Below, in pieces: positions 1,585 to 64,000 of a DNA stretch of 64,000 bases (the first letter of the stretch is position 1; each line of letters opens with the position of its first letter). The notes under the pieces are model-generated. The model was given only the letters and a program-made list of their open reading frames with translations. It did not search any database and was not told the origin of the DNA. The stretch is from Escherichia coli (lineage in GTDB: Bacteria > Pseudomonadota > Gammaproteobacteria > Enterobacterales > Enterobacteriaceae). Position numbers and translations under genes: made by a program. The DNA lies in assembly GCF_003334385.1 (NCBI RefSeq), contig NZ_QOWN01000013.1; one strand, 5' to 3'.

Positions 1585-2238
1585 TTAAAAACGATATCCT
1601 GCCGAGAACATAAACACCCACGGGTCAAGGCGTACATTGTCGCTATAACTGCCTTTAGCCAGTTTACGACCATCAGATTTATACTTCGCGGTGGTATCGA
1701 TATCCATGTACCACACTGACATGTTAACCAACCAGTCACGGTTAATCAGATAATCAACCCCCACCTGCCCGGCAGCTCCCCAGGAATCTTTCAGACTGAG
1801 ATCGGAAAGCCCTGCCTCTTTGCCATGATCGTTAAATCCATTATCAAAGAAGGTGGTGTAGTTAATACCTGCCCCAACGTAAGGACGGAATTTGCTGCTG
1901 GCATCACCAAAATACCACTGCGCCATCAGTGTTGGTGGCAGATGATGAACGGTTGCAATATCGCCGGTCGCCCGGGTGCCGATTTTATGGCGGAACGGCG
2001 TCGCTGCCAGTAATTCCACACCAATGTTGTCGGTCGCCATATAAGTAAACGTAAGGCCCAGTTGCGTGTTATTGGTCACGCTGAATCCACCCAGACTTCC
2101 TAACGTACCACCAGCACCTTCTGTTGGACGTACGGTTGCAGAACCTGCACGCATAAAAAATTCGCCTGCTTCATGCGCAAAGGCACTGCCAGAGAGAAGA
2201 GTTGTTACTGCCAAAGCCGCCACTGTTAACTTTTTCAT
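1585..2238 (-). CDS. ompW: Outer membrane protein W
   Basis: 217-aa ORF with signal peptide MKKLTVAALAVTTLLSGSAFA and OMP C-terminus ...FSAGYRF, in conserved synteny with yciCBA-tonB. Confidence 0.93.
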   Translation of the reverse strand: MKKLTVAALAVTTLLSGSAFAHEAGEFFMRAGSATVRPTEGAGGTLGSLGGFSVTNNTQLGLTFTYMATDNIGVELLAATPFRHKIGTRATGDIATVHHLPPTLMAQWYFGDASSKFRPYVGAGINYTTFFDNGFNDHGKEAGLSDLSLKDSWGAAGQVGVDYLINRDWLVNMSVWYMDIDTTAKYKSDGRKLAKGSYSDNVRLDPWVFMFSAGYRF

Positions 2239-45798: not shown

Positions 45799-46662
<864 letters not shown>

Positions 46663-46688
46663 TTAATCTTGAGTAAAATGTCGATTAA

Positions 46689-47498
46689 TTAATGCAGCAC
46701 AATATGTTTATGCGCGATGTTATTTATTTGCGCACGGATCATTTCGCTGATCGGGTCTTCCGGACACTGTTCAACGAAATAACTTAAATCGTTCAACGCA
46801 ACGTGTTCGCAATCCAGTTGCGCATAAATCAACCCGCGATCGCGAATTTCATAGGGATCTTCAGGGTTGAATTGTAATAAAGCTTCGCTGGTGCGTAACG
46901 CCAGCTCCATCTGATTTTCTTCCATCAACGAGGCTTTGAGTGTATCCAGCAATTTGCGGATTACCTCAATGTTATCAGCTTCATCAAGGTCTTCATAAAA
47001 CAGTTCCGCCGACGGGCTGATATTTCCCTTTAACCATACGTCCAGCATATGTTCGCTTAACGATTCACCGTTAAAAGGATTAATCAGCCAAATTTCGCCA
47101 TCCGGACATTCAATGCGCAATATCAGCTGCGTAGGGAAAATCACCGGCAGCAGCGGCAAATCGAGACGATTCGCGACCCATAATAAAACCGCACCTAATG
47201 ATACCGCACTGCCCTGTCGATTCTTTAACACCTGGTCCAGCCATAATGCATCGGAAAGACGATAAACACCGCGTGAGGCTTTAAATCCCCAGTCGCCGTA
47301 AAACAGCGCGATCAGTTTTTCCAACTGCTCTTCTAAAGGCAGAAGCTGGCTGATTTCTTCCTTCGCCAGACTAACGAGACGCTCCAGTTCGTCGTAAACA
47401 TCTTGCGAGGGAAAATCGCGGCGGATTGCTTCGCAAGCCAGGATCATGCCTTCGCACAATGGCGCTTTATTAAATTCGAAATCAGCTAACGATCTCAT
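46689..47498 (-). CDS. sirB1: SirB1-family protein (YchA)
   Basis: 269 aa, position in the prfA-prmC-sirB2-sirB1-kdsA operon. Confidence 0.85.
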   Translation of the reverse strand: MRSLADFEFNKAPLCEGMILACEAIRRDFPSQDVYDELERLVSLAKEEISQLLPLEEQLEKLIALFYGDWGFKASRGVYRLSDALWLDQVLKNRQGSAVSLGAVLLWVANRLDLPLLPVIFPTQLILRIECPDGEIWLINPFNGESLSEHMLDVWLKGNISPSAELFYEDLDEADNIEVIRKLLDTLKASLMEENQMELALRTSEALLQFNPEDPYEIRDRGLIYAQLDCEHVALNDLSYFVEQCPEDPISEMIRAQINNIAHKHIVLH

Positions 47499-47501
47499 GA
47501 C

Positions 47502-47894
47502 TTACCCCAGTAACGGTACTTTTGTGGTGGCGAGTTTAATGATGATGTACAGCACCACCAACGCCAGCGGGAAGGCAATAATGCGCGCCTGCTGACTGTG
47601 CATACGACGATAATCGAGTGCAATAAAACCCAAAACGATATAAATGATAACTCCAAACAGCTTTTCAGTCAGCCACTGTGCCTGCCCGGAAAATGGCAGG
47701 ATGTGCGCTTTAGCCATCAACGCAATGCCGCTTAACAGTAACAGCGTATCGACAACCGGCGGCACAATGCGCGTCCAGCGAGCAAATGCCTGTGGATGCT
47801 TCTGATAACGTAGCCAGAAACGTAAGGTTAATAGCCCAACAGAAAGCGCGATACTAATAAGATGAACACTAAGCAGTGTAGAAAAACTTGTCAT
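47502..47894 (-). CDS. sirB2: SirB2-family inner membrane protein (YchQ)
   Basis: 130-aa multi-TM ORF, operon position. Confidence 0.85.
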   Translation of the reverse strand: MTSFSTLLSVHLISIALSVGLLTLRFWLRYQKHPQAFARWTRIVPPVVDTLLLLSGIALMAKAHILPFSGQAQWLTEKLFGVIIYIVLGFIALDYRRMHSQQARIIAFPLALVVLYIIIKLATTKVPLLG

Positions 47895-48724
47895 TGATAA
47901 TAGCGGCCGAGCGTTACGCGCTCGTTATCACCATAGTCACGGCAGGTTTCGACGTCATGATACCCCGCGAGGATAAATGCTTGTCGCACCGCTTCGCCCT
48001 GCTGCCAGCCATGTTCCAGAAGCAGAAAGCCGCCGGATACCAGCGCGTTACGCGACTGTTCGATGATATGCACGATGTCTGCCATTCCACTGTCTGCCGC
48101 AACCAGCGCAGTGAGCGGCTCAAAGCGGACATCGCCTTGTTGAAGATGAGGGTCCTGCTCGTCAATATACGGCGGATTGCTGACAATCATCGCAAACTGC
48201 TGCCCGGCTAGCGCGCTAAACCAGTCGCTTTGCAGAATGTGGATATTTTTGATCGCCAGATGCTGGGCATTACGTTGTGCCAGGGAGACAGCATCAGGCA
48301 TACGATCTACAGCGATAATTTCGCAGTCCGGGCGCTCGCTAGCCAGCGCAAGCGCAATCGCCCCGGTACCCGTCCCGAGATCGAGAATACGGCAAGGTTG
48401 TTCAGGCAACCGCGCCAGTGCCTGCTCCACCAGACACTCCGTATCCGGGCGCGGAATTAAGGTCGCTGGCGAAACAAATAACGGCAACGACCAGAATTCT
48501 CGCACCCCGGTTAAATGAGCAATGGGTTCACCATCGCGACGACGTGTCAGTAGCGCATCAAGTTGCTGACATTGTTCGTCAGTCAGCTGCGTTTCACCAA
48601 AGGCGAGAATAAAAGTACGCCCTCTGCCGGTAACATGCTCCAGCAGGATTTCAGCATCACGCCGCGGGCTTTCGCTCGCCTGAAGTTGGCTTATTGCTTC
48701 ACGTAACCAGTGTTGATATTCCAT
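47891..48724 (-). CDS. prmC: Release factor glutamine N5-methyltransferase PrmC (HemK)
   Basis: 277 aa with SAM-binding motif (DLGTGTGAIALA) and NPPY catalytic motif. Confidence 0.95.
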   Translation of the reverse strand: MEYQHWLREAISQLQASESPRRDAEILLEHVTGRGRTFILAFGETQLTDEQCQQLDALLTRRRDGEPIAHLTGVREFWSLPLFVSPATLIPRPDTECLVEQALARLPEQPCRILDLGTGTGAIALALASERPDCEIIAVDRMPDAVSLAQRNAQHLAIKNIHILQSDWFSALAGQQFAMIVSNPPYIDEQDPHLQQGDVRFEPLTALVAADSGMADIVHIIEQSRNALVSGGFLLLEHGWQQGEAVRQAFILAGYHDVETCRDYGDNERVTLGRYYQ

Positions 48725-49806
48725 TATTCCTGCTCGGACAACGCCGCCAGTTGGTCGGCCTGATGTTCCTGGATAATCGGTTCAATCAGCATATCCAGCT
48801 TACCTTCCATCACTTCATCCAGGCGGTAGAGCGTCAGGTTGATGCGGTGATCGGTAACGCGCCCCTGCGGGAAGTTGTAAGTACGGTTACGGTCGCTGCG
48901 ATCGCCACTCCCCAGCAGGTTACGACGGGTAGACGCTTCGGCCTGTTGGCGTTTTGCCATTTCAGCAGCGTGGATGCGAGCACCGAGAACAGAAAGTGCT
49001 TTAGCTTTGTTTTTATGTTGTGAACGTTCGTCCTGACATTCAACAACAATCCCGGTCGGCAAGTGAGTAATACGAATTGCCGAATCGGTGGTGTTAACGT
49101 GCTGACCACCCGCCCCTGACGAGCGGAAAGTATCAATGCGTAAATCTGCTGGGTTGATGTCCGGCAGTTCTGCGTCAGGCAGTTCTGGCATTACCGCAAC
49201 GGTACAAGCAGAAGTATGAATACGACCCTGCGATTCCGTAGCAGGAACACGTTGCACGCGATGACCGCCGGATTCAAATTTCAGACGACCATACACACCA
49301 TCACCGCTAATTTTGGCGATGATCTCTTTATAACCACCATGTTCACCCTCGCTGGCGCTCATGATTTCTACCCGCCAGCGGCGGGCTTCGGCATAACGGC
49401 TGTACATACGGAACAGATCGCCCGCGAACAGCGCCGCTTCGTCGCCGCCGGTTCCGGCTCGGACTTCGAGGAAGGCGTTACGTTCGTCATCAGGATCTTT
49501 TGGCAGTAACAGAACCTGTAATTGCTGTTCCAGTTGCTCGCTTTTTTCTTTAGCTTCGCGCAGTTCCTCCTGCGCCATCTCACGCATTTCAGGATCATCG
49601 AGCATCATCTGTGCGGTTTCGATATCTTCCTGAACCTGTTGCCAGTCAGTAAAACAGCGCGAAACATCACTTAACTGCGCATATTCGCGTGATAATGCGC
49701 GAAAACGTTCCTGGTCGGCGATAGTTTGCGCGTCACCCAGCAACGCCTGAACTTCTTCATGGCGTTCATGCAGGGCTTCCAGTTTGGCAACGATAGAAGG
49801 CTTCAT
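48724..49806 (-). CDS. prfA: Peptide chain release factor 1
   Basis: 360 aa with GGQ motif (SGAGGQHVN) and PxT stop-codon recognition region. Confidence 0.97.
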
Positions 49807-49847
49807 AGGCGTAAATGCACCCTGTAAAAAAAGAAAATGATGTACTG

Positions 49848-51104
49848 CTACTCCAGCCCGAGGCTGTCGCGCAGAATATTCAGGCGTTCGTTATCCCCGT
49901 CACGGGCGGCCTGTTGAAGTGATTTCGTTGGCGCATGGATCAAGCGGTTAGTCAGTTTCCATGCCAGATCCTGCATAATGGCTTGCGCGTCGCCGCCCTG
50001 CTCAAGGGCCGCTAACGCTTTGGCGGTTAACTCATCGCGAACTTGCTCTGCCTGGCTGCGATACTCGCGAATGGTTTCGCTGGCGCTTTGTGCTCGCAGC
50101 CACGCCATAAATTCGCTGGTTTCCTGAGCGACAATAGTTTCCGCCTCAACCGCTGCGGCTTTACGCTGCGCCAGGTTGTGCGAAATGATGCTTTGCAGAT
50201 CATCAACGCTATAAAGATAAGCATTCGCCAGTTTGCCAACTTCCGGCTCAACATCGCGCGGAACGGCAATATCCACCAACAGCATTGGTTGGTTGCGACG
50301 GCTTTTTAATGCACGCTCCACCATGCCTTTCCCGATAATCGGTAACGGGCTGGCGGTGGAACTGATGATGATATCGGCTTCGCGCAGACGTTCGTCGATA
50401 TCACTCAGGGCAATCACTTCCGCGCCGACTTCATCTGCCAGAATTTGGGCACGTTCGCGAGTGCGGTTGGCGATAATCATCTTCTGTACTTTGTGTTCGC
50501 GCAGATGACGCGCCACCAGCTCGATAGTTTCGCCCGCGCCTACCAGCAACACTGTGACCGTAGAGAGCGATTCAAAGATCTGCCGCGCCAGCGTACAAGC
50601 CGCAAAAGCGACAGACACAGCGCTGGCACCGATATCTGTTTCAGTGCGAACGCGTTTCGCGACAGAGAAAGATTTCTGGAACATGCGTTCCAGTTCGCTG
50701 GCCTTCATATGACCTTTTTGCGAATCGGCAAACGCTTTTTTAACCTGACCGAGGATCTGCGGCTCCCCCAGAACCAGTGAATCCAGGCCGCTGGCAACAC
50801 GCATTAAATGGCTAACCGCGTCGTTATCCTGATGCCAGTAGAGGCTTTTACGCAGATCTTCTTCATTAAGATTGTGATAATCGCAAAGCCAGCGGATTAA
50901 CGCCTCTTGCAGGTTGTCCTGCTCTTCAACGCTAAGATAAAGTTCCGTGCGGTTGCACGTCGACAGCACCACGCCGCCCTGCACCATCGGCTGCGCAAGC
51001 AGGCTGTCAAGCGCCTGATCGAGCTTATCCGGCGAAAACGATACACGTTCTCGCAGCGATACAGGTGCCGTTTTATGGTTGATACCGAGTGCTAAAAGGG
51101 TCAT
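49848..51104 (-). CDS. hemA: Glutamyl-tRNA reductase
   Basis: 418 aa from [21 protein letters not shown]; the ORF track extends 66 codons upstream with no stop. Confidence 0.95.
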
Positions 51105-51248
51105 GTCTGCGGGAAATAATACCAACGTTGATAGGGTTAGTCTGCTTGCATCATACAGGATGCGTAAGATCAATAAAAGAGAGCGCCCCCTTTTGGAGTA
51201 ATTGCCGAAAGCCGTTAGATTCTGGCAATTAAGACAACTTGAACATAG

Positions 51249-51940
<692 letters not shown>

Positions 51941-51941
<1 letters not shown>

Positions 51942-52792
51942 TGCGGACACAGTGGCCCTCTCCGGCAAAACTTAATCTGTTTTTATACATTACCGGTCAG
52001 CGTGCGGATGGTTACCACACGCTGCAAACGCTGTTTCAGTTTCTTGATTACGGCGACACCATCAGCATTGAGCTTCGTGACGATGGGGATATTCGTCTGT
52101 TAACGCCCGTTGAAGGCGTGGAACATGAAGATAACCTGATCGTTCGCGCAGCGCGATTGTTGATGAAAACTGCGGCAGACAGCGGGCGTCTTCCGACGGG
52201 AAGCGGTGCGAATATCAGCATTGACAAGCGTTTGCCGATGGGCGGCGGTCTCGGCGGTGGTTCATCCAATGCCGCGACGGTCCTGGTGGCATTAAATCAT
52301 CTCTGGCAATGCGGGCTAAGCATGGATGAGCTGGCGGAAATGGGGCTGACGCTGGGCGCAGATGTTCCTGTCTTTGTTCGGGGGCATGCCGCGTTTGCCG
52401 AAGGCGTTGGTGAAATACTAACGCCGGTGGATCCGCCAGAGAAGTGGTATCTGGTGGCGCACCCTGGTGTAAGTATTCCGACTCCGGTGATTTTTAAAGA
52501 TCCTGAACTCCCGCGCAATACGCCAAAAAGGTCAATAGAAACGTTGCTAAAATGTGAATTCAGCAATGATTGCGAGGTTATCGCAAGAAAACGTTTTCGC
52601 GAGGTTGATGCGGTGCTTTCCTGGCTGTTAGAATACGCCCCGTCGCGCCTGACTGGGACAGGGGCCTGTGTCTTTGCTGAATTTGATACAGAGTCTGAAG
52701 CCCGCCAGGTGCTAGAGCAAGCCCCGGAATGGCTCAATGGCTTTGTGGCGAAAGGCGCTAATCTTTCCCCATTGCACAGAGCCATGCTTTAA
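51941..52792 (+). CDS. ispE: 4-diphosphocytidyl-2-C-methyl-D-erythritol kinase
   Basis: 283 aa, GHMP kinase motif ([14 protein letters not shown]). Confidence 0.95.
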
Positions 52793-52816
52793 GCCGGGCA
52801 AGCTGAGTTTCGGTGA

Positions 52817-53890
<1,074 letters not shown>

Positions 53891-53906
53891 TCGAACCCGG
53901 CTCAAA

Positions 53907-53929
53907 GACCCGCTGCGGCGGGTTTTTTT
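53907..53929 (+). terminator. prs rho-independent terminator
   Basis: AAAGACCCGCtgcgGCGGGTTTTTTTG. Confidence 0.7.
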
Positions 53930-54014
53930 GTCTGTAATATCCATTTGTATGACCTATGCCTCCTTCACCTGCCATTTAGTTGACAGATGATGCGCTCACG
54001 GATGAAACATTATT

Positions 54015-55694
54015 GTGAACAAAATATTTTCCTCACATGTGATGCCTTTCCGCGCTCTGATCGACGCTTGCTGGAAAGAAAAATATACTGCCGCACGGTT
54101 TACCCGTGACCTGATTGCCGGGATAACCGTCGGGATTATTGCTATCCCGCTGGCGATGGCGTTGGCTATTGGTAGTGGTGTGGCACCCCAGTACGGTTTA
54201 TATACCGCAGCTGTTGCGGGGATTGTCATTGCTCTGACGGGTGGGTCACGCTTTAGCGTTTCCGGTCCGACTGCGGCATTTGTGGTAATTCTCTATCCCG
54301 TGTCGCAACAGTTTGGACTGGCAGGACTGCTGGTTGCGACCTTGCTGTCGGGGATCTTTTTGATTCTGATGGGTCTGGCACGCTTTGGTCGCCTGATTGA
54401 GTATATTCCGGTTTCCGTCACCTTAGGTTTCACCTCGGGTATCGGGATCACCATCGGTACCATGCAGATTAAAGATTTTCTCGGTCTGCAAATGGCCCAT
54501 GTCCCGGAACATTATCTACAAAAAGTCGGCGCATTATTTATGGCGCTGCCGACCATTAATGTGGGTGATGCTGCCATTGGCATTGTGACGCTAGGTATTC
54601 TTGTTTTTTGGCCGCGTCTGGGCATTCGTTTACCCGGTCACCTTCCGGCCTTGCTGGCTGGTTGCGCGGTGATGGGGATTGTTAACCTGCTCGGCGGACA
54701 TGTTGCTACCATCGGTTCGCAATTCCACTACGTCCTGGCCGATGGTTCTCAGGGTAACGGTATTCCGCAACTGCTGCCGCAACTGGTGCTGCCGTGGGAT
54801 CTGCCTAATTCAGAATTCACGCTAACCTGGGATTCTATTCGCACACTGCTGCCTGCGGCATTCTCAATGGCAATGCTCGGCGCAATCGAATCTCTGCTCT
54901 GCGCCGTGGTGCTGGATGGTATGACCGGGACGAAACACAAGGCGAACAGCGAACTGGTTGGACAGGGACTGGGGAATATTATCGCTCCGTTCTTTGGTGG
55001 TATTACCGCTACAGCTGCCATCGCGCGTTCTGCCGCTAACGTCCGTGCCGGGGCAACGTCCCCTATCTCGGCGGTGATCCACTCTATTCTGGTTATTCTT
55101 GCCCTGCTGGTACTGGCACCGCTGCTCTCCTGGCTGCCGCTTTCCGCCATGGCAGCCCTGCTGTTGATGGTGGCGTGGAACATGAGTGAAGCGCACAAAG
55201 TGGTCGACTTGCTGCGTCATGCGCCGAAAGATGACATCATCGTCATGCTGCTGTGCATGTCGCTGACCGTGTTGTTTGATATGGTTATTGCCATCAGCGT
55301 GGGGATCGTGCTGGCATCGCTGCTGTTTATGCGTCGTATCGCACGTATGACTCGCCTGGCACCGGTAGTCGTAGATGTTCCAGACGATGTCCTGGTTCTG
55401 CGCGTTATTGGCCCGCTGTTTTTTGCTGCTGCTGAAGGCTTATTCACGGACCTGGAGTCACGTCTTGAAGGCAAACGGATTGTGATTCTGAAGTGGGATG
55501 CCGTTCCGGTACTTGATGCTGGTGGTCTTGATGCGTTCCAGCGTTTTGTGAAGCGTCTGCCCGAGGGATGTGAACTGCGCGTGTGCAACGTGGAATTCCA
55601 GCCACTGCGCACTATGGCTCGCGCTGGCATTCAACCGATCCCGGGACGCCTGGCGTTCTTCCCGAATCGTCGCGCGGCGATGGCGGATTTATAA
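54015..55694 (+). CDS. dauA: SulP-family C4-dicarboxylate transporter DauA (YchM)
   Basis: 559 aa with multi-TM SulP core and C-terminal STAS domain. Confidence 0.93.
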
Positions 55695-55748
55695 GTACGA
55701 GATTGACCAGTCAGCGCAAACTGACTGGTCAGCAAACTGCATTATTTG

Positions 55749-56027
55749 TTAGCTATGACGGCGATTATCGCTACGGCGGCAACGTTTGTCATAGTGGCGA
55801 ACCCACCAGTAACGGTCGCACACCTGTTCATGCCCGCCAACACGGGCACCCGCCAGCCAGAGAATGGCACCGACGAAAATACTTAGCACTGCACCATGTG
55901 CGAAATACTGGGGCATATTAAACTGTGGTAACTGGTTGAGGATTGAATACCCCACGCCGACCACCATTACCACCAGACCCAACCCCATGAGCACGTTACC
56001 GAGTAACGAAGCGTTTTTGCGTTTCAT
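55749..56027 (-). CDS. ychH: Small inner membrane protein YchH
   Basis: 92 aa with two TM helices, synteny. Confidence 0.85.
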   Translation of the reverse strand: MKRKNASLLGNVLMGLGLVVMVVGVGYSILNQLPQFNMPQYFAHGAVLSIFVGAILWLAGARVGGHEQVCDRYWWVRHYDKRCRRSDNRRHS

Positions 56028-56304
56028 ATGTCACCTCCGGAACTTTCTGGGTTGTAACAGGGAATACCCCTCTTCCTTATGTGTAAAGTATAGACAACAC
56101 TCAGTGGGTTATGTGCGGGCGTGATCACAATTACAACCCTTATTTCAACAAAACTTTACAAATAAACGCCTGAACACCTTGACTTTCTAATAGTCCACTC
56201 AGGCAATTATTACGTTATCTGCATTTGATACGCAGTTTTTTGTCAAGCGGGGCCGCAACCAGTAAACTACGCGCCAGTTATGTACACACTCAGGACAAAA
56301 AAAC

Positions 56305-56889
56305 GTGACGATTAAATTGATTGTCGGCCTGGCGAACCCCGGTGCTGAATACGCCGCAACGCGACATAATGCTGGTGCCTGGTTCGTTGACTTACTGGCA
56401 GAGCGTTTGCGCGCTCCGCTGCGCGAAGAGGCTAAATTCTTTGGTTATACTTCGCGAGTCACTCTTGGAGGCGAAGATGTCCGCCTGTTAGTCCCGACTA
56501 CATTTATGAATCTCAGCGGCAAAGCCGTTGCGGCGATGGCCAGTTTTTTCCGCATTAATCCGGACGAAATTCTGGTGGCCCACGACGAACTGGATCTGCC
56601 TCCTGGCGTCGCCAAATTTAAATTGGGCGGTGGCCATGGTGGTCACAATGGACTGAAAGACATCATCAGTAAATTGGGTAATAACCCTAACTTTCACCGT
56701 TTACGCATCGGAATCGGTCATCCGGGCGATAAAAATAAAGTTGTCGGTTTTGTGTTAGGCAAACCGCCTGTTAGTGAACAGAAGTTAATTGATGAAGCCA
56801 TTGACGAAGCGGCGCGTTGTACTGAAATGTGGTTTACAGATGGCTTGACCAAAGCAACGAACCGATTGCACGCCTTTAAAGCGCAATAA
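56305..56889 (+). CDS. pth: Peptidyl-tRNA hydrolase
   Basis: 194 aa beginning [29 protein letters not shown]. Confidence 0.96.
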
Positions 56890-57005
56890 GTCGTTGTCTG
56901 CGGCATTTTTGCCGAGTGCCGTGTATAATAGGCAAAGTTATTTCCATTTCTGCAATCTGTTAGCAATAACAGGTTGATTATTAAGATATTAAGGTGATTT
57001 AAATC

Positions 57006-58097
57006 ATGGGATTCAAATGCGGTATCGTCGGTTTGCCCAACGTCGGGAAATCTACCCTGTTCAACGCGCTGACCAAAGCCGGTATTGAAGCGGCCAACTT
57101 TCCATTCTGCACCATTGAGCCGAACACAGGCGTCGTACCAATGCCTGATCCTCGCCTGGATCAACTGGCTGAAATCGTAAAACCGCAGCGTACGCTTCCC
57201 ACGACCATGGAATTTGTCGATATCGCCGGTCTGGTAAAAGGCGCATCGAAAGGCGAAGGTCTGGGTAACCAGTTCCTGACCAACATCCGTGAAACCGAAG
57301 CGATCGGTCACGTTGTTCGCTGCTTTGAAAATGACAACATCATTCACGTTTCCGGCAAAGTTAACCCGGCTGACGATATTGAAGTTATCAACACCGAACT
57401 GGCGCTGGCAGACCTCGACACCTGCGAACGTGCGATTCATCGCGTACAGAAGAAAGCCAAAGGTGGCGATAAAGACGCGAAAGCTGAGCTGGCGGTCCTG
57501 GAAAAATGCCTGCCCCAGTTGGAAAATGCAGGTATGCTGCGCGCGCTGGATTTAAGCGCTGAAGAGAAAGCGGCTATTCGTTACCTGAGCTTCCTGACGC
57601 TGAAACCAACAATGTACATCGCCAACGTCAACGAAGACGGTTTTGAAAACAACCCATATCTTGACCAGGTGCGTGAAATCGCGGCGAAAGAAGGTTCTGT
57701 TGTGGTTCCGGTTTGTGCTGCTGTTGAAGCAGACATTGCCGAACTGGACGACGAAGAACGTGACGAGTTTATGCAGGAGCTTGGGCTGGAAGAGCCGGGC
57801 CTGAACCGTGTGATCCGTGCCGGTTATAAACTGCTGAACCTGCAAACTTACTTCACCGCTGGGGTGAAAGAAGTGCGTGCATGGACCATTCCGGTTGGAG
57901 CAACCGCGCCGCAGGCAGCGGGCAAAATCCATACTGATTTTGAAAAAGGCTTTATCCGTGCACAAACCATCTCGTTTGAAGATTTCATCACTTACAAAGG
58001 TGAACAAGGCGCGAAAGAAGCAGGCAAAATGCGTGCAGAAGGTAAAGATTACATCGTGAAAGATGGCGATGTGATGAACTTCCTTTTCAACGTCTAA
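57006..58097 (+). CDS. ychF: Ribosome-binding ATPase YchF
   Basis: 363 aa, Obg-family P-loop (GLPNVGKST) and C-terminal TGS domain. Confidence 0.96.
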
Positions 58098-58154
58098 TTA
58101 ATTTATTGTCTCATGAGGTTTCGCTAAATCTCATGAAGAGCGCAAAAGTATATA

Positions 58155-58180
58155 AAATCCACGCAATTGCGTGGATTTTT
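58155..58180 (+). terminator. ychF rho-independent terminator
   Basis: AAAATCCACGCaattGCGTGGATTTTT. Confidence 0.7.
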
Positions 58181-58865
58181 CATTTCACCGAGTCCTAATC
58201 ATTCTTGTAACATCCTACACTTTTGTGCTTATTGCCTATAGTGAACCACGAGAATAATTAAAGACATAAGTGTTCAGATGACGGATATCTCATTAGCAGT
58301 GATATAACGTAAGTTTTTGTATCACTACACATCAGCCCCCTTCACAGCTGATCAAAATTGATCACGCTCCAATATGCTGGCAAGATGAAAATGATAACCA
58401 GTAGCACAATAACAACGATAGGCCAGAAAACCCATTGACCAAAAATGAATATCGATGTTTTTTGCTTTTTCTTATTAGTAATGCAAAAATGGCGCATATT
58501 GTTTTTGTTATGCAGATACATCAAGCGAAATTCCCATAACTAATTAGGATTATTACAAAAAATCTTCACCAAATTTTTTAACCGCTGTTTGTTGTAATAT
58601 TTTTGCCATATTTATAGTAACGAATTGGAATAAGTAACGACAACTTAGGGAATAACTCGATATAAACTCACCTTTGTAAGGGGGATGTTAAATATATATT
58701 AATTCCTGTGTTCCTGATTTTGCCCGGTAATAGAGAATTATTCTCTGAGAAGCTCATCATGATTGCACCATACAAATATCATGATGATAAGAGGATATTA
58801 TTCATTGATTTAAACAAAATGACAAAATCCATAGACCCATAGTCTGGGTACTATATAGGAGTGGT

Positions 58866-61732
58866 ATGGGCATCAAACAACACAATGGGAATACCAAAGC
58901 AGATCGTCTCGCTGAATTAAAAATCCGTTCGCCCTCAATTCAACTGATAAAATTTGGCGCTATTGGTTTGAATGCAATTATCTTTTCCCCCCTGCTGATA
59001 GCTGCTGATACAGGAAGTCAATATGGCACCAATATTACTATTAATGATGGTGACAGAATTACAGGAGATACCGCCGATCCATCAGGAAACCTCTATGGTG
59101 TAATGACCCCAGCAGGAAACACGCCTGGCAATATCAACCTGGGTAATGATGTCACCGTCAATGTCAACGACGCCTCTGGATATGCAAAAGGAATCATTAT
59201 TCAGGGCAAAAACAGCTCCCTGACAGCTAACCGACTCACAGTAGATGTTGTTGGTCAAACCTCTGCCATCGGCATTAACTTAATTGGTGACTATACCCAT
59301 GCTGACTTAGGCACAGGCAGCACCATTAAGAGTAACGATGACGGCATCATTATTGGGCATAGCTCAACACTAACAGCCACTCAATTCACCATTGAAAACT
59401 CGAACGGTATAGGCCTAACCATCAATGACTATGGCACCAGTGTCGATCTTGGAAGCGGAAGTAAAATCACGACCGATGGAAGTACAGGTGTTTATATCGG
59501 TGGTCTCAACGGCAATAACGCCAATGGTGCTGCGCGTTTTACGGCTACAGACCTGACAATCGATGTTCAGGGCTACAGCGCCATGGGGATAAACGTACAG
59601 AAAAACTCTGTTGTCGATCTCGGAACAAACAGTACCATTAAAACCAATGGCGATAATGCTCACGGCCTCTGGAGCTTTGGCCAGGTTAGCGCGAATGCAC
59701 TCACTGTTGATGTAACTGGAGCCGCGGCCAATGGCGTCGAAGTTCGTGGTGGTACAACCACTATCGGTGCAGATAGCCATATTTCTTCCGCGCAGGGCGG
59801 TGGCCTCGTCACCAGTGGTTCAGACGCGATAATCAATTTTACTGGCACGGCAGCGCAACGAAACAGCATCTTTTCCGGCGGTTCTTATGGTGCCTCGGCC
59901 CAGACGGCAACGGCTGTTGTCAACATGCAAAATACCGATATTACAGTTGATCGTAATGGCAGTCTGGCGCTGGGTTTGTGGGCTCTCAGCGGCGGTAGAA
60001 TAACCGGAGACAGTTTGGCTATCACCGGCGCGGCAGGAGCCAGGGGAATTTATGCCATGACCAACAGCCAGATCGACCTCACGAGCGATCTGGTCATTGA
60101 TATGAGTACACCCGACCAGATGGCCATCGCAACGCAACATGACGATGGTTATGCCGCCAGCCGCATCAACGCCTCGGGTCGTATGCTTATCAACGGTAGC
60201 GTTCTTTCCAAAGGTGGGCTAATCAATCTGGATATGCACCCTGGGTCGGTTTGGACAGGTTCCTCCCTCAGCGATAATGTCAATGGCGGAAAACTGGACG
60301 TTGCAATGAATAACAGCGTCTGGAACGTAACAAGTAATTCTAATCTCGACACGCTGGCGCTGAGCCATTCAACTGTCGATTTTGCCAGCCACGGGTCAAC
60401 TGCCGGCACATTTGCCACATTAAACGTAGAGAACCTGAGCGGTAACAGTACCTTTATTATGCGTGCTGATGTTGTTGGCGAGGGTAATGGCGTTAATAAT
60501 AAAGGGGATTTATTGAATATCAGCGGGAGTAGTGCTGGTAATCACGTATTGGCTATCCGCAACCAGGGCAGCGAGGCCACAACGGGAAATGAAGTTCTGA
60601 CAGTGGTAAAAACCACTGACGGCGCGGCCTCGTTCAGCGCGTCTTCTCAGGTTGAGTTGGGGGGATATCTGTACGATGTGCGTAAAAATGGCACTAACTG
60701 GGAGCTTTACGCTTCCGGGACAGTTCCGGAACCGACTCCTAATCCTGAACCCACACCAGCTCCCGCTCAGCCTCCCATAGTCAACCCCGATCCTACGCCT
60801 GAACCCGCTCCCACGCCTAAACCCACCACGACCGCAGATGCTGGCGGCAATTATCTCAATGTCGGTTACTTATTGAACTATGTTGAAAACCGTACGCTGA
60901 TGCAACGGATGGGTGACCTGCGAAATCAGAGTAAAGACGGTAATATCTGGTTGCGCAGTTATGGGGGAAGCCTGGACTCCTTTGCCAGTGGCAAACTGAG
61001 CGGCTTTGACATGGGTTACAGCGGTATCCAGTTTGGTGGGGATAAACGTCTCTCTGATGTAATGCCGTTGTATGTCGGTCTGTATATTGGCTCAACACAT
61101 GCATCGCCGGACTATAGCGGAGGCGACGGTACCGCACGTTCAGACTACATGGGAATGTACGCCAGTTACATGGCACAAAACGGTTTTTACAGCGATCTCG
61201 TTATAAAAGCATTGCGCCAGAAAAATAGTTTCCACGTACTGGACAGTCAGAACAACGGCGTTAACGCCAACAGCACTGCGAATGGAATGAGCATCTCCCT
61301 GGAAGCCGGGCAGAGGTTCAACCTGTCCCCTACTGGTTATGGGTTCTATATAGAGCCGCAAACCCAGCTTACATACAGCCACCAGAATGAGATGACTATG
61401 AAGGCGAGTAATGGCCTCAATATACATCTGAATCACTACGAATCGCTGCTGGGGCGTGCCAGCATGATACTGGGGTATGACATCACCGCAGCAACAGCCA
61501 GCTGAATGTCTATGTGAAGACTGGCGCTATCCGCGAGTTTTCAGGGGATACCGAATATCTGTTGAACAACTCCCGGGAGAAGTACAGTTTCAAAGGTAAT
61601 GGCTGGAATAACGGCGTGGGAGTCAGTGCACAGTATAACAAACAGCACACATTCTATCTCGAAGCGGATTACACGCAGGGTAACCTCTTTGATCAGAAGC
61701 AAGTCAACGGAGGATATCGCTTCAGCTTTTAA
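58866..61732 (+). pseudogene. ycgV: Autotransporter adhesin YcgV, reading frame broken near 61480-61505
   Basis: The passenger and most of the beta-domain lie in one frame (58866-61505, 879 aa, ending ...DITAATAS*). The last ~76 residues including the terminal aromatic ...GGYRFSF lie in the +2 frame (61481-61732). One extra base near 61498-61503 would restore a ~955-aa protein. Confidence 0.75.
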
Positions 61733-61831
61733 GTGCGGGATAGACAAGCCCTTAAACGATGCTGAAAATTGTTAGCGTGCGCCGGAATGAAATACAGATC
61801 ACTCTGATGTATCAGAAATCGTTTCTGTCTT

Positions 61832-63751
61832 TCATACCCGGCGCTTAAACTGCCCTGCATCAATGCCATGTTGCTTCATTTTCCGCCACAGCGTAGTGCG
61901 GCCGATCCCAAGTAAAGCCGACATTTCCTGAATGCGACCGCCTGTGACCTGGGCTGCGTTAATAATTGCCTCTTTTTCAACTTCCGCAAATGACAGACTG
62001 GTGGAAAGGCGGGTGGCGCTGACATCATCTGTCGCCTGCTCGGTAAACAGATGTTCCGGCAAATCACTGACGCGAATGCGCCCGTTATCACTACTCAGAG
62101 CAAGATTCTCGATGACGCTGTAAAGTTCAAAATCGTTGCCTGGCCATGCACAAGAAACCAGGCGAGCGAGGGCATCGTCATCAATTTTCAGCCGCGTAGA
62201 GAAGCGTTTTTCAAGACTGCGTAATTTGTTATTCACCAGCGCCGGAATGCTGCCACGCCGCATACGCAGAGGCGGGATGGTAATTTCAAATGCATGCAGC
62301 GCGTAATACAGCTGGCGACTAAAACGATTTTGTTCCACCAGCATTGCGAGGTCCGCGGTCGTTGTTGCAATCACTTTGACATCAATTGGTATTAAACGCC
62401 GCGCATCCAGTCGCGTGATAACCCCCTGCTTGATAACCTGAAGCAAAGCAGACTGTAACTCCACCGCCAGATATTCAATCTTTTCAAGAAACAGCGTGCC
62501 GCCGTGTGCCAGTTCCAGCCGACTCAGACGGCCATTTTCATTGTCCGTGCGATCGCCACCAATAAATTCTTCCGCCAGCGCAGCATCACCATATAACTCA
62601 CAATTGACGGCGATATAAGGACCTGCAGCACGCTCGCTTTCATTATGAATTGCCTGACTTAGCAGTGCCTTGCCCACGCCCTCTTCTCCACAAAGCAGGA
62701 CAGGAAAGCTACTGCGCGCCGCCTGGCGACCAAAATGAATCAAGCGGCGGGTTTGCGGATCGTCCTGTGGCATATGAGCGAAGGTATGGCTGACTTTTCC
62801 TAATTGACTGGTCATCAACTGCCGCATCTGTTCCACAGGATGGAGCAACAAAATAAAGCTGGTTCCCTGCGTTTCTATTATCGGTTTAAGGGTTATCACC
62901 GCATCAATAAACTGGTGCTGGCTTTCAAAGGTTGCTTCTACGTGTTTGAGCGGATGTGCCTGTTTTATTGCTTGTTGCAATACGGCGGGTAACGTTAAGA
63001 GTTCAGTGATTGCCCGTCCCTGACTTGCCGTCGCGTCAAGGCGCAAGACCCGCGCCGCCTGGGCATTAATAAATTGCAAATTACCCTGCTCGTCCCAGCT
63101 AATCACGCCATCATCCATACTTTCTAACAGGGCATTAAGTTGATTTAAATGACGGTTAGTTTCAGCGAGCAAACTGTCCGTCAGCAGTAAATTTCCGACC
63201 TCGCGGGCGATTGCCAACGTCAACGGCAAATCAGCTGCGGTAGTTTGCTCAACCGGACACGCCAGCGCTATTGTTCCCGTCAATCGGCCCTTGCTGTCAA
63301 ACAACGGCGTTGCACAAAAGGCCCAGTTCCAGAGTACCTGTTTGAAATGTTGATCGGCCATCGTTTTCACGGCCTGACCAGAGATAGCCGCTAACGATAG
63401 CGCACAAGTACCAATAATTCCCTCGGCGCAATACGTGCCGTCATTGAATCCCAGTGCACTTAGCTGCTGCAAGGTTTGCGGATCGCCATTACGGCTGAGA
63501 ATGCAGGCGGTTTCATCGAGGATAAACAGCGCACACTCTCGCGGTGCCATATATTCCCAGGCATCTTCCAGCGCAGCCTGCCCGAGCGTCAGCATCGCTT
63601 TCTTACGCCGATAAATAGAAGCAAATGTCACGCCCTGGGCCTGATGTGGTACGTTCCATGTCTCCCGTTTCATCAGCTTATTGCATCGCTCCCAGGAGGT
63701 TGCAATTAAGGGAGATATGCCCCGACCATCGTTGTTAAAAGCGCCACTCAT
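61832..63751 (-). CDS. dhaR: Sigma-54-type transcriptional activator of the dihydroxyacetone kinase operon
   Basis: 639 aa from MSGAFNNDGRG, with GAF/PAS N-terminal domains, AAA+ sigma-54 interaction domain (GEEGVGKALLSQAIH...) and C-terminal Fis-type HTH. The ORF track extends 3 codons upstream. Confidence 0.93.
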   Translation of the reverse strand: MSGAFNNDGRGISPLIATSWERCNKLMKRETWNVPHQAQGVTFASIYRRKKAMLTLGQAALEDAWEYMAPRECALFILDETACILSRNGDPQTLQQLSALGFNDGTYCAEGIIGTCALSLAAISGQAVKTMADQHFKQVLWNWAFCATPLFDSKGRLTGTIALACPVEQTTAADLPLTLAIAREVGNLLLTDSLLAETNRHLNQLNALLESMDDGVISWDEQGNLQFINAQAARVLRLDATASQGRAITELLTLPAVLQQAIKQAHPLKHVEATFESQHQFIDAVITLKPIIETQGTSFILLLHPVEQMRQLMTSQLGKVSHTFAHMPQDDPQTRRLIHFGRQAARSSFPVLLCGEEGVGKALLSQAIHNESERAAGPYIAVNCELYGDAALAEEFIGGDRTDNENGRLSRLELAHGGTLFLEKIEYLAVELQSALLQVIKQGVITRLDARRLIPIDVKVIATTTADLAMLVEQNRFSRQLYYALHAFEITIPPLRMRRGSIPALVNNKLRSLEKRFSTRLKIDDDALARLVSCAWPGNDFELYSVIENLALSSDNGRIRVSDLPEHLFTEQATDDVSATRLSTSLSFAEVEKEAIINAAQVTGGRIQEMSALLGIGRTTLWRKMKQHGIDAGQFKRRV

Positions 63752-63978
63752 ATCCCGCATCCCTTATGACAAAAGGTGTTCCGGCTCGCAATTTTAAGTA
63801 TTAATACACGTAAAAGTTTCAATATGGAACATTCATTAAAGCATATGTTTCACTATGAAACATAATTTGGGCTAATTTTCTTTTCCCTTGCCTGATGCAC
63901 AATGGATTCATCGGCAGTCAGTGGTCGCCGTGTCGTTGAACATCATCCATGCCCTACCGTAATTGCTGGAGCAAAATA

Positions 63979-64000
63979 ATGAAAAAATTGATCAATGATG
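63979..64000 (+). CDS. dhaK: Dihydroxyacetone kinase subunit DhaK, first 7 codons only (truncated by window end)
   Basis: ATG at 63979 encodes MKKLIND..., divergent from dhaR. Only 22 nt lie in the window. Confidence 0.6.

Follow-up and report, generated by a model that had tools for sequence, protein, structure and literature searches.

A single-base deletion turns the autotransporter gene ycgV into a frameshift pseudogene in a lineage of Escherichia coli

In the window (the whole 64,000-nucleotide stretch of E. coli DNA analysed here), the gene for the autotransporter YcgV has lost one G within the part that encodes its beta-barrel, and we conclude, with a probability of about 0.9, that this gene is a genuine, vertically inherited pseudogene whose truncated product is not assembled. 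The hallmarks of a frameshift pseudogene are all present: intact orthologues exist that differ by one explanatory indel, the lesion is reproducible, and it removes residues that are both conserved and required. Thousands of orthologues differ from the window at this one defined base pair, so that chance is not in question. Window ycgV is an ordinary case: a dispensable adhesin gene turned pseudogene by a frameshift in one lineage.

YcgV is described as a group-4 (AIDA/Ag43-like) classical autotransporter that was first noted in K-12 (PMC3796261, PMC9289746) and that, when expressed, promotes adhesion and biofilm formation, like YfaL and YpjA (Roux et al. 2005, as cited in PMC3796261 and PMC9289746). 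Its C-terminal 334 residues are reported to function as an anchor for surface display if supplied with an exogenous signal peptide (PMC13101318).

The ycgV locus and the missing base

The locus is flanked by ychF (57006..58097) on one side and by dhaR (61832..63760, minus strand) on the other, a position that bears out the identification of the gene as ycgV in an earlier note on this DNA. On the plus strand, the open reading frame 58866..61505 encodes 879 residues ending in ...ILGYDITAATAS (...DITAATAS*), with its TGA at 61503-61505. Past this premature stop, frame +2 reads ...LNVYVKTGAIREFSGDTEYLL...NGGYRFSF* (and includes ...VYVKTGAIREF...) as far as the native stop at 61730-61732. The open reading frame, the stop and the continuation in the +2 frame are all as the earlier note had described them when it proposed that a frameshift splits ycgV in the beta-barrel domain. 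The length of about 955 residues that it gave for K-12 YcgV also proved right, since intact ycgV in both K-12 DH5a and E. coli C spans 2,868 nt and encodes 955 residues (WP_001334788.1).

Alignment of the window with intact ycgV reveals a single indel, in which GG has become G, the remaining G being window position 61491; against K-12 DH5a and E. coli C, this G at 61490/61491 is the only indel across the whole gene. The junction changes from GCAGGCAAC in the intact gene to GCAGCAAC in the window or, in longer context, from CACCGCAGGCAACAGCC in K-12 to CACCGCAGCAACAGCC. At the protein level, native D-I-T-A875-G-N-S-Q-L-N-V-Y-V becomes D-I-T-A875-A-T-A-S-stop. The missing base had been placed at gccagc/tgaatg (61502/61503), and a base added there does restore a product of 955 residues; the true site, though, lies about 12 nt further upstream, and the repair at 61502/61503 would leave four wrong residues, because codons 876-879 are already out of frame at that point. 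The features of the broken gene are as follows.

58866..61505, plus strand: truncated ycgV frame, comprising 875 native residues, ATAS and TGA (ORF listing, translation and codon table)
61490..61491, plus strand: 1-bp deletion in codon 876, where the wild type has GCA-GGC and the window GCA-GC, in the beta8-beta9 periplasmic turn (alignments and junction 40-mer searches)
61491..61505, plus strand: four aberrant codons, GCA ACA GCC AGC (876-879, ATAS), followed by the premature TGA (codon table)
61493..61732, plus strand: out-of-frame remnant corresponding to native N877-F955, with strands beta9-beta12, extracellular loop 5, the beta-signal G-Y-R-F-S-F and TAA (translations, AlphaFold2 strands and conservation)

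Distribution of the deletion allele

The complete RefSeq genomes of E. coli were searched with a 40-mer centred on the deletion junction, using a 28-nt exact word in megablast, so that only the deletion allele is matched. A match was found in just one of 5,426 genomes, that of SCU-104, in which PGAP labels ycgV (NZ_CP053284.1, HHJ22_RS09985) a 'frameshifted' pseudogene, whereas the wild-type 41-mer counterpart matched 3,416 of the 5,426. Reference ycgV does not share the premature stop; a shared stop was the observation that the earlier note had named as able to refute its reading. The allele is, by virtue of the RefSeq flag in SCU-104, already known as a pseudogene; a literature search on ycgV as a pseudogene returned nothing relevant.

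Further carriers came from draft and metagenome data. An exact-protein look-up placed the 879-residue window product, which includes the substitutions S783L and G803S, on at least four further contigs, among them ones from the Logan assemblies ERR1948963 and SRR3823653 and from the NCBI draft GCA_012504395.1. The product that bears the deletion only (the 879-residue SCU-104 form, otherwise K-12 in sequence) was found in 178 index blocks of public assemblies, ENA and JGI metagenomes included. In every carrier fetched the junction 40-mer is identical, and one contig, DABAMG010000018.1, is identical to the window over 8,135 bp. Private SNPs at positions 57271, 58836, 62948, 62990 and 63784 separate the carriers from one another; because these differ, the carriers are independent samples rather than copies of one data set.

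Lineage of the allele and order of events

Between 46 and 64 kb the window differs from SCU-104, which is listed under phylogroup A, ST8125 (PMC11251922), by five SNPs, and identity over window positions 1-27992 is 99.36%; the window is therefore not SCU-104 itself. With E. coli C used to polarise the differences in window 46000-64000, the SNPs at 56101, 61213 and 61272 are private to the window and those at 47097 and 63784 to SCU-104. In this region the deletion-only haplotype equals that of E. coli C but for the two SNPs private to SCU-104 and three unpolarised differences at 49567, 49648 and 50313. The window and three of the contigs fetched form a sub-lineage in which three extra transitions lie on the deletion background, two of them nonsynonymous changes in ycgV:

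61213, plus strand: SNP C>T giving S783L (TCA>TTA), on the frameshifted background only (carrier alignments and complete-genome search)
61272, plus strand: SNP G>A giving G803S (GGT>AGT), on the frameshifted background only (carrier alignments and complete-genome search)

These two transitions lie 59 nt apart, within the barrel-coding part of ycgV that stays in frame, and are private to the window sub-lineage. A search of the 3,939 complete genomes with a ycgV gene found neither SNP, and we therefore place both changes later than the frameshift; the same absence rules out their import by recombination from another ycgV allele. Residues 783 and 803 are both variable among homologues, and the fall of two of the three sub-lineage SNPs inside ycgV does not amount to significant clustering (p about 0.07 by our own calculation), so that relaxed selection is compatible with the two substitutions but not demonstrable from them. 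They are possibly the early decay of a dead gene.

Taken together, the haplotypes point to a history in which the deletion arose once, in a phylogroup-A-like background matching K-12 and E. coli C, a single origin being inferred here from shared flanking sequence rather than from a genome-wide phylogeny. The allele now circulates in many isolates and metagenomes, and the window sub-lineage acquired its two further amino-acid changes after the deletion, in a gene that was already dead. SCU-104 has the ancestral form of this dead allele.

Other losses of ycgV and the question of selection

The 3' part of ycgV is unmatched in 27% of complete genomes. Of ten genomes sampled broadly, seven have an intact ycgV and three are affected: O145:H28 strain RM13516 retains a C-terminal remnant whose N-terminus is missing, EcMAD1 carries an internal stop, and A30 (NZ_CP092500.1) has a shortened CDS of 2,742 nt that diverges at its 3' end. 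Independent inactivation of ycgV is commonplace in E. coli.

These losses bear on a reading in which the mutation is indeed inactivating but was selected, through adaptive loss of an adhesin or antigen, instead of spreading by neutral drift. The breadth of the allele (178 index blocks) speaks for it, as does the independent disruption or absence of the gene in so many lineages. Yet a dispensable gene would be equally expected to show frequent independent loss, the allele may have hitch-hiked in a successful clone, and the two later substitutions lie at variable positions with the insignificant clustering given above; we regard selection as unlikely, at about one chance in ten. A more specific version, in which loss of YcgV was adaptive in a successful commensal lineage of phylogroup A and the repeated disruptions are the mark of recurrent selection rather than of neutral decay, is somewhat less likely again. 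If true, the lineage might, for example, have gained by shedding a surface antigen or a protein that is sticky and costly. Loss of YcgV might be adaptive in this sense, but positive support for the idea begins and ends with the wide occurrence of the allele.

Protein anatomy and consequences of the truncation

To locate the break in the protein, we used models and profiles of the intact orthologue. Pfam assigns residues 494-615 to Pertactin (PF03212, E=1.4e-37) and 694-935 to Autotransporter (PF03797, E=1.6e-37); PF03212 is also listed for the 879-residue product. The C-terminal 294 aa show end-to-end homology to the solved barrels of BrkA (E=1.7e-24), Vag8, EspP (about 1e-13) and Hbp, those of BrkA and EspP aligning with YcgV 668-955. 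A single-sequence AlphaFold prediction of the beta-domain reached a pLDDT of only 30.5 and was replaced by an AlphaFold2 model of intact YcgV built on a 100-sequence alignment from an exhaustive representative search, which gave a pLDDT of 91.4 and a pTM of 0.83 at full length. In this model the passenger is a beta-helix, a linker is disordered and PT-rich, residues 655-685 form a helix and the barrel has twelve strands. In the passenger, short strands run continuously from 56 to 616, and here and in the helix pLDDT is above 90. The later strands are beta8 at 858-875, beta9 at 878-893, beta10 at 912-924, beta11 at 928-939 and beta12 at 943-954, and from these positions the break after residue 875 puts the frameshift in the periplasmic turn between beta8 and beta9. 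At the N-terminus, the hydrophobic stretch IKFGAIGLNAIIFSPLLIAAD marks a putative signal region, where pLDDT falls below 50 (residues 1-43); SignalP 6.0 is reported to give K-12 YcgV a probability of only 0.47 (PMC13101318). The parts retained in frame are:

60345..60710, plus strand: pertactin-type passenger domain, residues 494-615 (Pfam PF03212)
60828..60920, plus strand: alpha-helical linker, residues 655-685, expected in the barrel pore (AlphaFold2 model of intact YcgV)
60939..61490, plus strand: barrel strands beta1-beta8, residues 692-875 (AlphaFold2 strands E692-704 to E858-875; PF03797)

Set against the layout of a type Va autotransporter, the upstream elements (beta-helical passenger, pertactin-type or autochaperone region and helical linker) all precede the frameshift and are kept. 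Only eight of the twelve strands of the C-terminal barrel remain in frame in the window ORF, and the C-terminal beta-signal of the form GXX-Phi-X-Phi, which is G950-Y-R-F-S-F955 in YcgV, is found in the shifted frame only. The loss of the last barrel strands and of the terminal aromatic motif, as the earlier note had predicted, is borne out by Pfam, by barrel homology and by the model. Across 100 homologues, the lost 80 residues have a mean conservation of 0.58, as against 0.55 for the retained barrel, and include 13 columns conserved at 90% or more, with E891, G919 and Y951 invariant. Y951 is found in 100% of homologues and R952 in 98%; 97 of the 100 end in F or W.

A recent review of the BAM complex (2026; PMC13067283) describes how the GXX-Phi-X-Phi beta-signal pairs with strand beta1 of BamA, so that folding nucleates from the C- to the N-terminus; in EspP, it is strands 12-9 that are resolved first on BamA. 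According to the same review, a small number of outer-membrane proteins have no canonical C-terminal beta-signal and depend on internal signals instead. Since such exceptions exist, loss of the beta-signal is in itself no absolute proof of inactivity, and the four missing strands weigh more heavily.

The sequence of events that we propose is as follows. Spontaneous deletion of one G of GG in codon 876 causes translation to stop four codons on. The product extends from the leader through the beta-helical passenger, pertactin-type domain and pore helix to strand 8, and lacks strands 9-12 and the GYRFSF beta-signal. Because these elements are lost, the truncated YcgV would, by the mechanism described for EspP and BAM, neither be recognised by BAM nor close to form a barrel. 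The passenger would then remain undisplayed and the polypeptide would probably be degraded in the periplasm. Failure of outer-membrane assembly, with no export of the passenger and loss of adhesin function, is a well-grounded prediction from this analogy.

Could the truncated protein nevertheless work in part, either because an eight-stranded barrel inserts or because the missing strands are supplied in trans? Its passenger, pertactin domain and eight strands are intact, and a 72-residue ORF (61514..61732) spans most of beta9 through beta12. This ORF begins with GTG, though, and has neither a Shine-Dalgarno sequence ahead of that codon nor a signal peptide for the periplasm, which makes complementation in trans implausible. 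The terminal strand and the beta-signal that nucleates BamA-dependent folding would sit on a separate, unexported peptide, and PGAP calls the SCU-104 allele a pseudogene. We consider partial function very improbable.

Bypass of the frameshift and sequencing error

Full-length YcgV might still be made in some amount if the frameshift were bypassed, by a programmed -1 shift or by transcriptional slippage, or if the window had captured the OFF state of a phase-variable gene. Several autotransporter adhesins are phase-variable, among them Ag43, by a different mechanism, and the downstream frame in the window is fully open to the native stop. Codons 855-880, however, contain no X XXY YYZ slippery heptamer, and no homopolymer longer than four is found within 61440-61520, the mutated tract being just GG as against G; the heptamer or long A/T run expected of programmed frameshifting or slippage is thus missing from these intervals. 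Nor is there a variable repeat tract of the kind expected of phase variation: all carriers are in one state and all wild-type genomes have GG, so that the OFF allele is fixed in all carriers fetched, and it has accumulated extra substitutions. In a scan of the gene region for promoters and terminators, fewer matches were found than in shuffled controls. Some production of full-length YcgV by these routes is extremely unlikely.

The surroundings of the gene bear on whether the base is really missing. Comparison of window 46000-64000 with E. coli C and SCU-104 yields one indel only, the missing ycgV G. In the 27.7 kb aligned with SCU-104, the first 2 kb aside, there is no 1-bp indel, and the only internal indel in those first 27.7 kb is one of 15 nt at the ompW/prophage edge. 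Over 50 kb of SCU-104, the 'frameshifted' flags fall on ycgV and a well-known IS4 remnant only. That the G was lost through a sequencing or assembly error, and that ycgV of the strain is really intact at 955 residues, can hardly be right: single-base indels are typical of long-read error and just one complete RefSeq genome has the deletion, but the identical junction recurs in independent Logan/SRA short-read, NCBI draft, ENA and JGI metagenome assemblies with differing private SNPs, the site is a GG and no long homopolymer, and comparison with relatives turns up no further scattered 1-bp indels in the window. The proviso of a sequencing error in the earlier note can accordingly be dropped, the deletion recurring in SCU-104, in at least four contigs with the window allele and in 178 deletion-only index blocks. 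With the same junction in independent assemblies and a window free of scattered 1-bp indels, we read the ycgV deletion as a genuine inherited allele.

Implications for annotation

The ycgV of this strain should be labelled a pseudogene and left out of counts of virulence or adhesin repertoires. Adhesin classifiers that score presence by nucleotide identity would report window ycgV as present. The lineage can conveniently be recognised by the junction 40-mer, ACTGGGGTATGACATCACCGCAGCAACAGCCAGCTGAATG; its allele is found in one of 5,426 complete genomes yet is common in draft and metagenome data.

Other differences within the window

Three further regions of the window differ from relatives in ways that are separate from ycgV. 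In the tyrT-rtT repeat region (27437-28109), three tandem tRNA-Tyr(GTA) genes are spaced at 294 nt, where the annotations of SCU-104 and E. coli C list two tRNA-Tyr genes and four rtT units; either the copy number is polymorphic or the repeat array has been assembled differently. Between 44700 and 45750, two copies of the ldr type-I toxin are detectable (45008 and 45543), where SCU-104 and E. coli C have three each, and the ldr region of SCU-104 is longer than that of the window by 536 nt, or one repeat unit. At the window edge (1-2240), an excisionase-like ORF (183-431) and an integrase-like ORF (409-1539) adjoin ompW (1585-2238, minus strand). This 2-kb edge accounts for 112 of the 122 mismatches that separate the first 27.7 kb from SCU-104, and the 15-nt indel relative to SCU-104 lies here too (1645-1659), close to where ompW ends at its 3' side. 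This pattern suggests that the window edge belongs to a different prophage from that of SCU-104 at the same ompW attachment site.

Comparison with known systems

The closest counterpart of the window allele is ycgV of SCU-104, which has the same single-G deletion, the same junction 40-mer and the same flanking haplotype; it differs in lacking S783L, G803S and the SNP at 56101, and in having its own SNPs at 47097 and 63784. K-12 YcgV (b1202, WP_001334788.1) is encoded at the orthologous place, with ychF and dhaR on either side, and has its passenger, Pertactin domain and strands 1-8 in common with the window product; within the gene its DNA is that of the window but for the 1-bp deletion and two SNPs; the window allele, by contrast, ends after 875 native residues, without strands 9-12 and the beta-signal. 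The lesions of RM13516, EcMAD1 and A30 affect the same gene but are of independent origin, and none of them is the deletion of a G in codon 876. The beta-domains of EspP and BrkA (PDB 2QOM/3SLJ and 3QQ2, with the BAM-EspP intermediates 7TTC and others) are homologous twelve-stranded barrels with a C-terminal aromatic beta-signal; unlike the window product they are intact and functional, they carry other passengers, and here they serve as a mechanistic model only.
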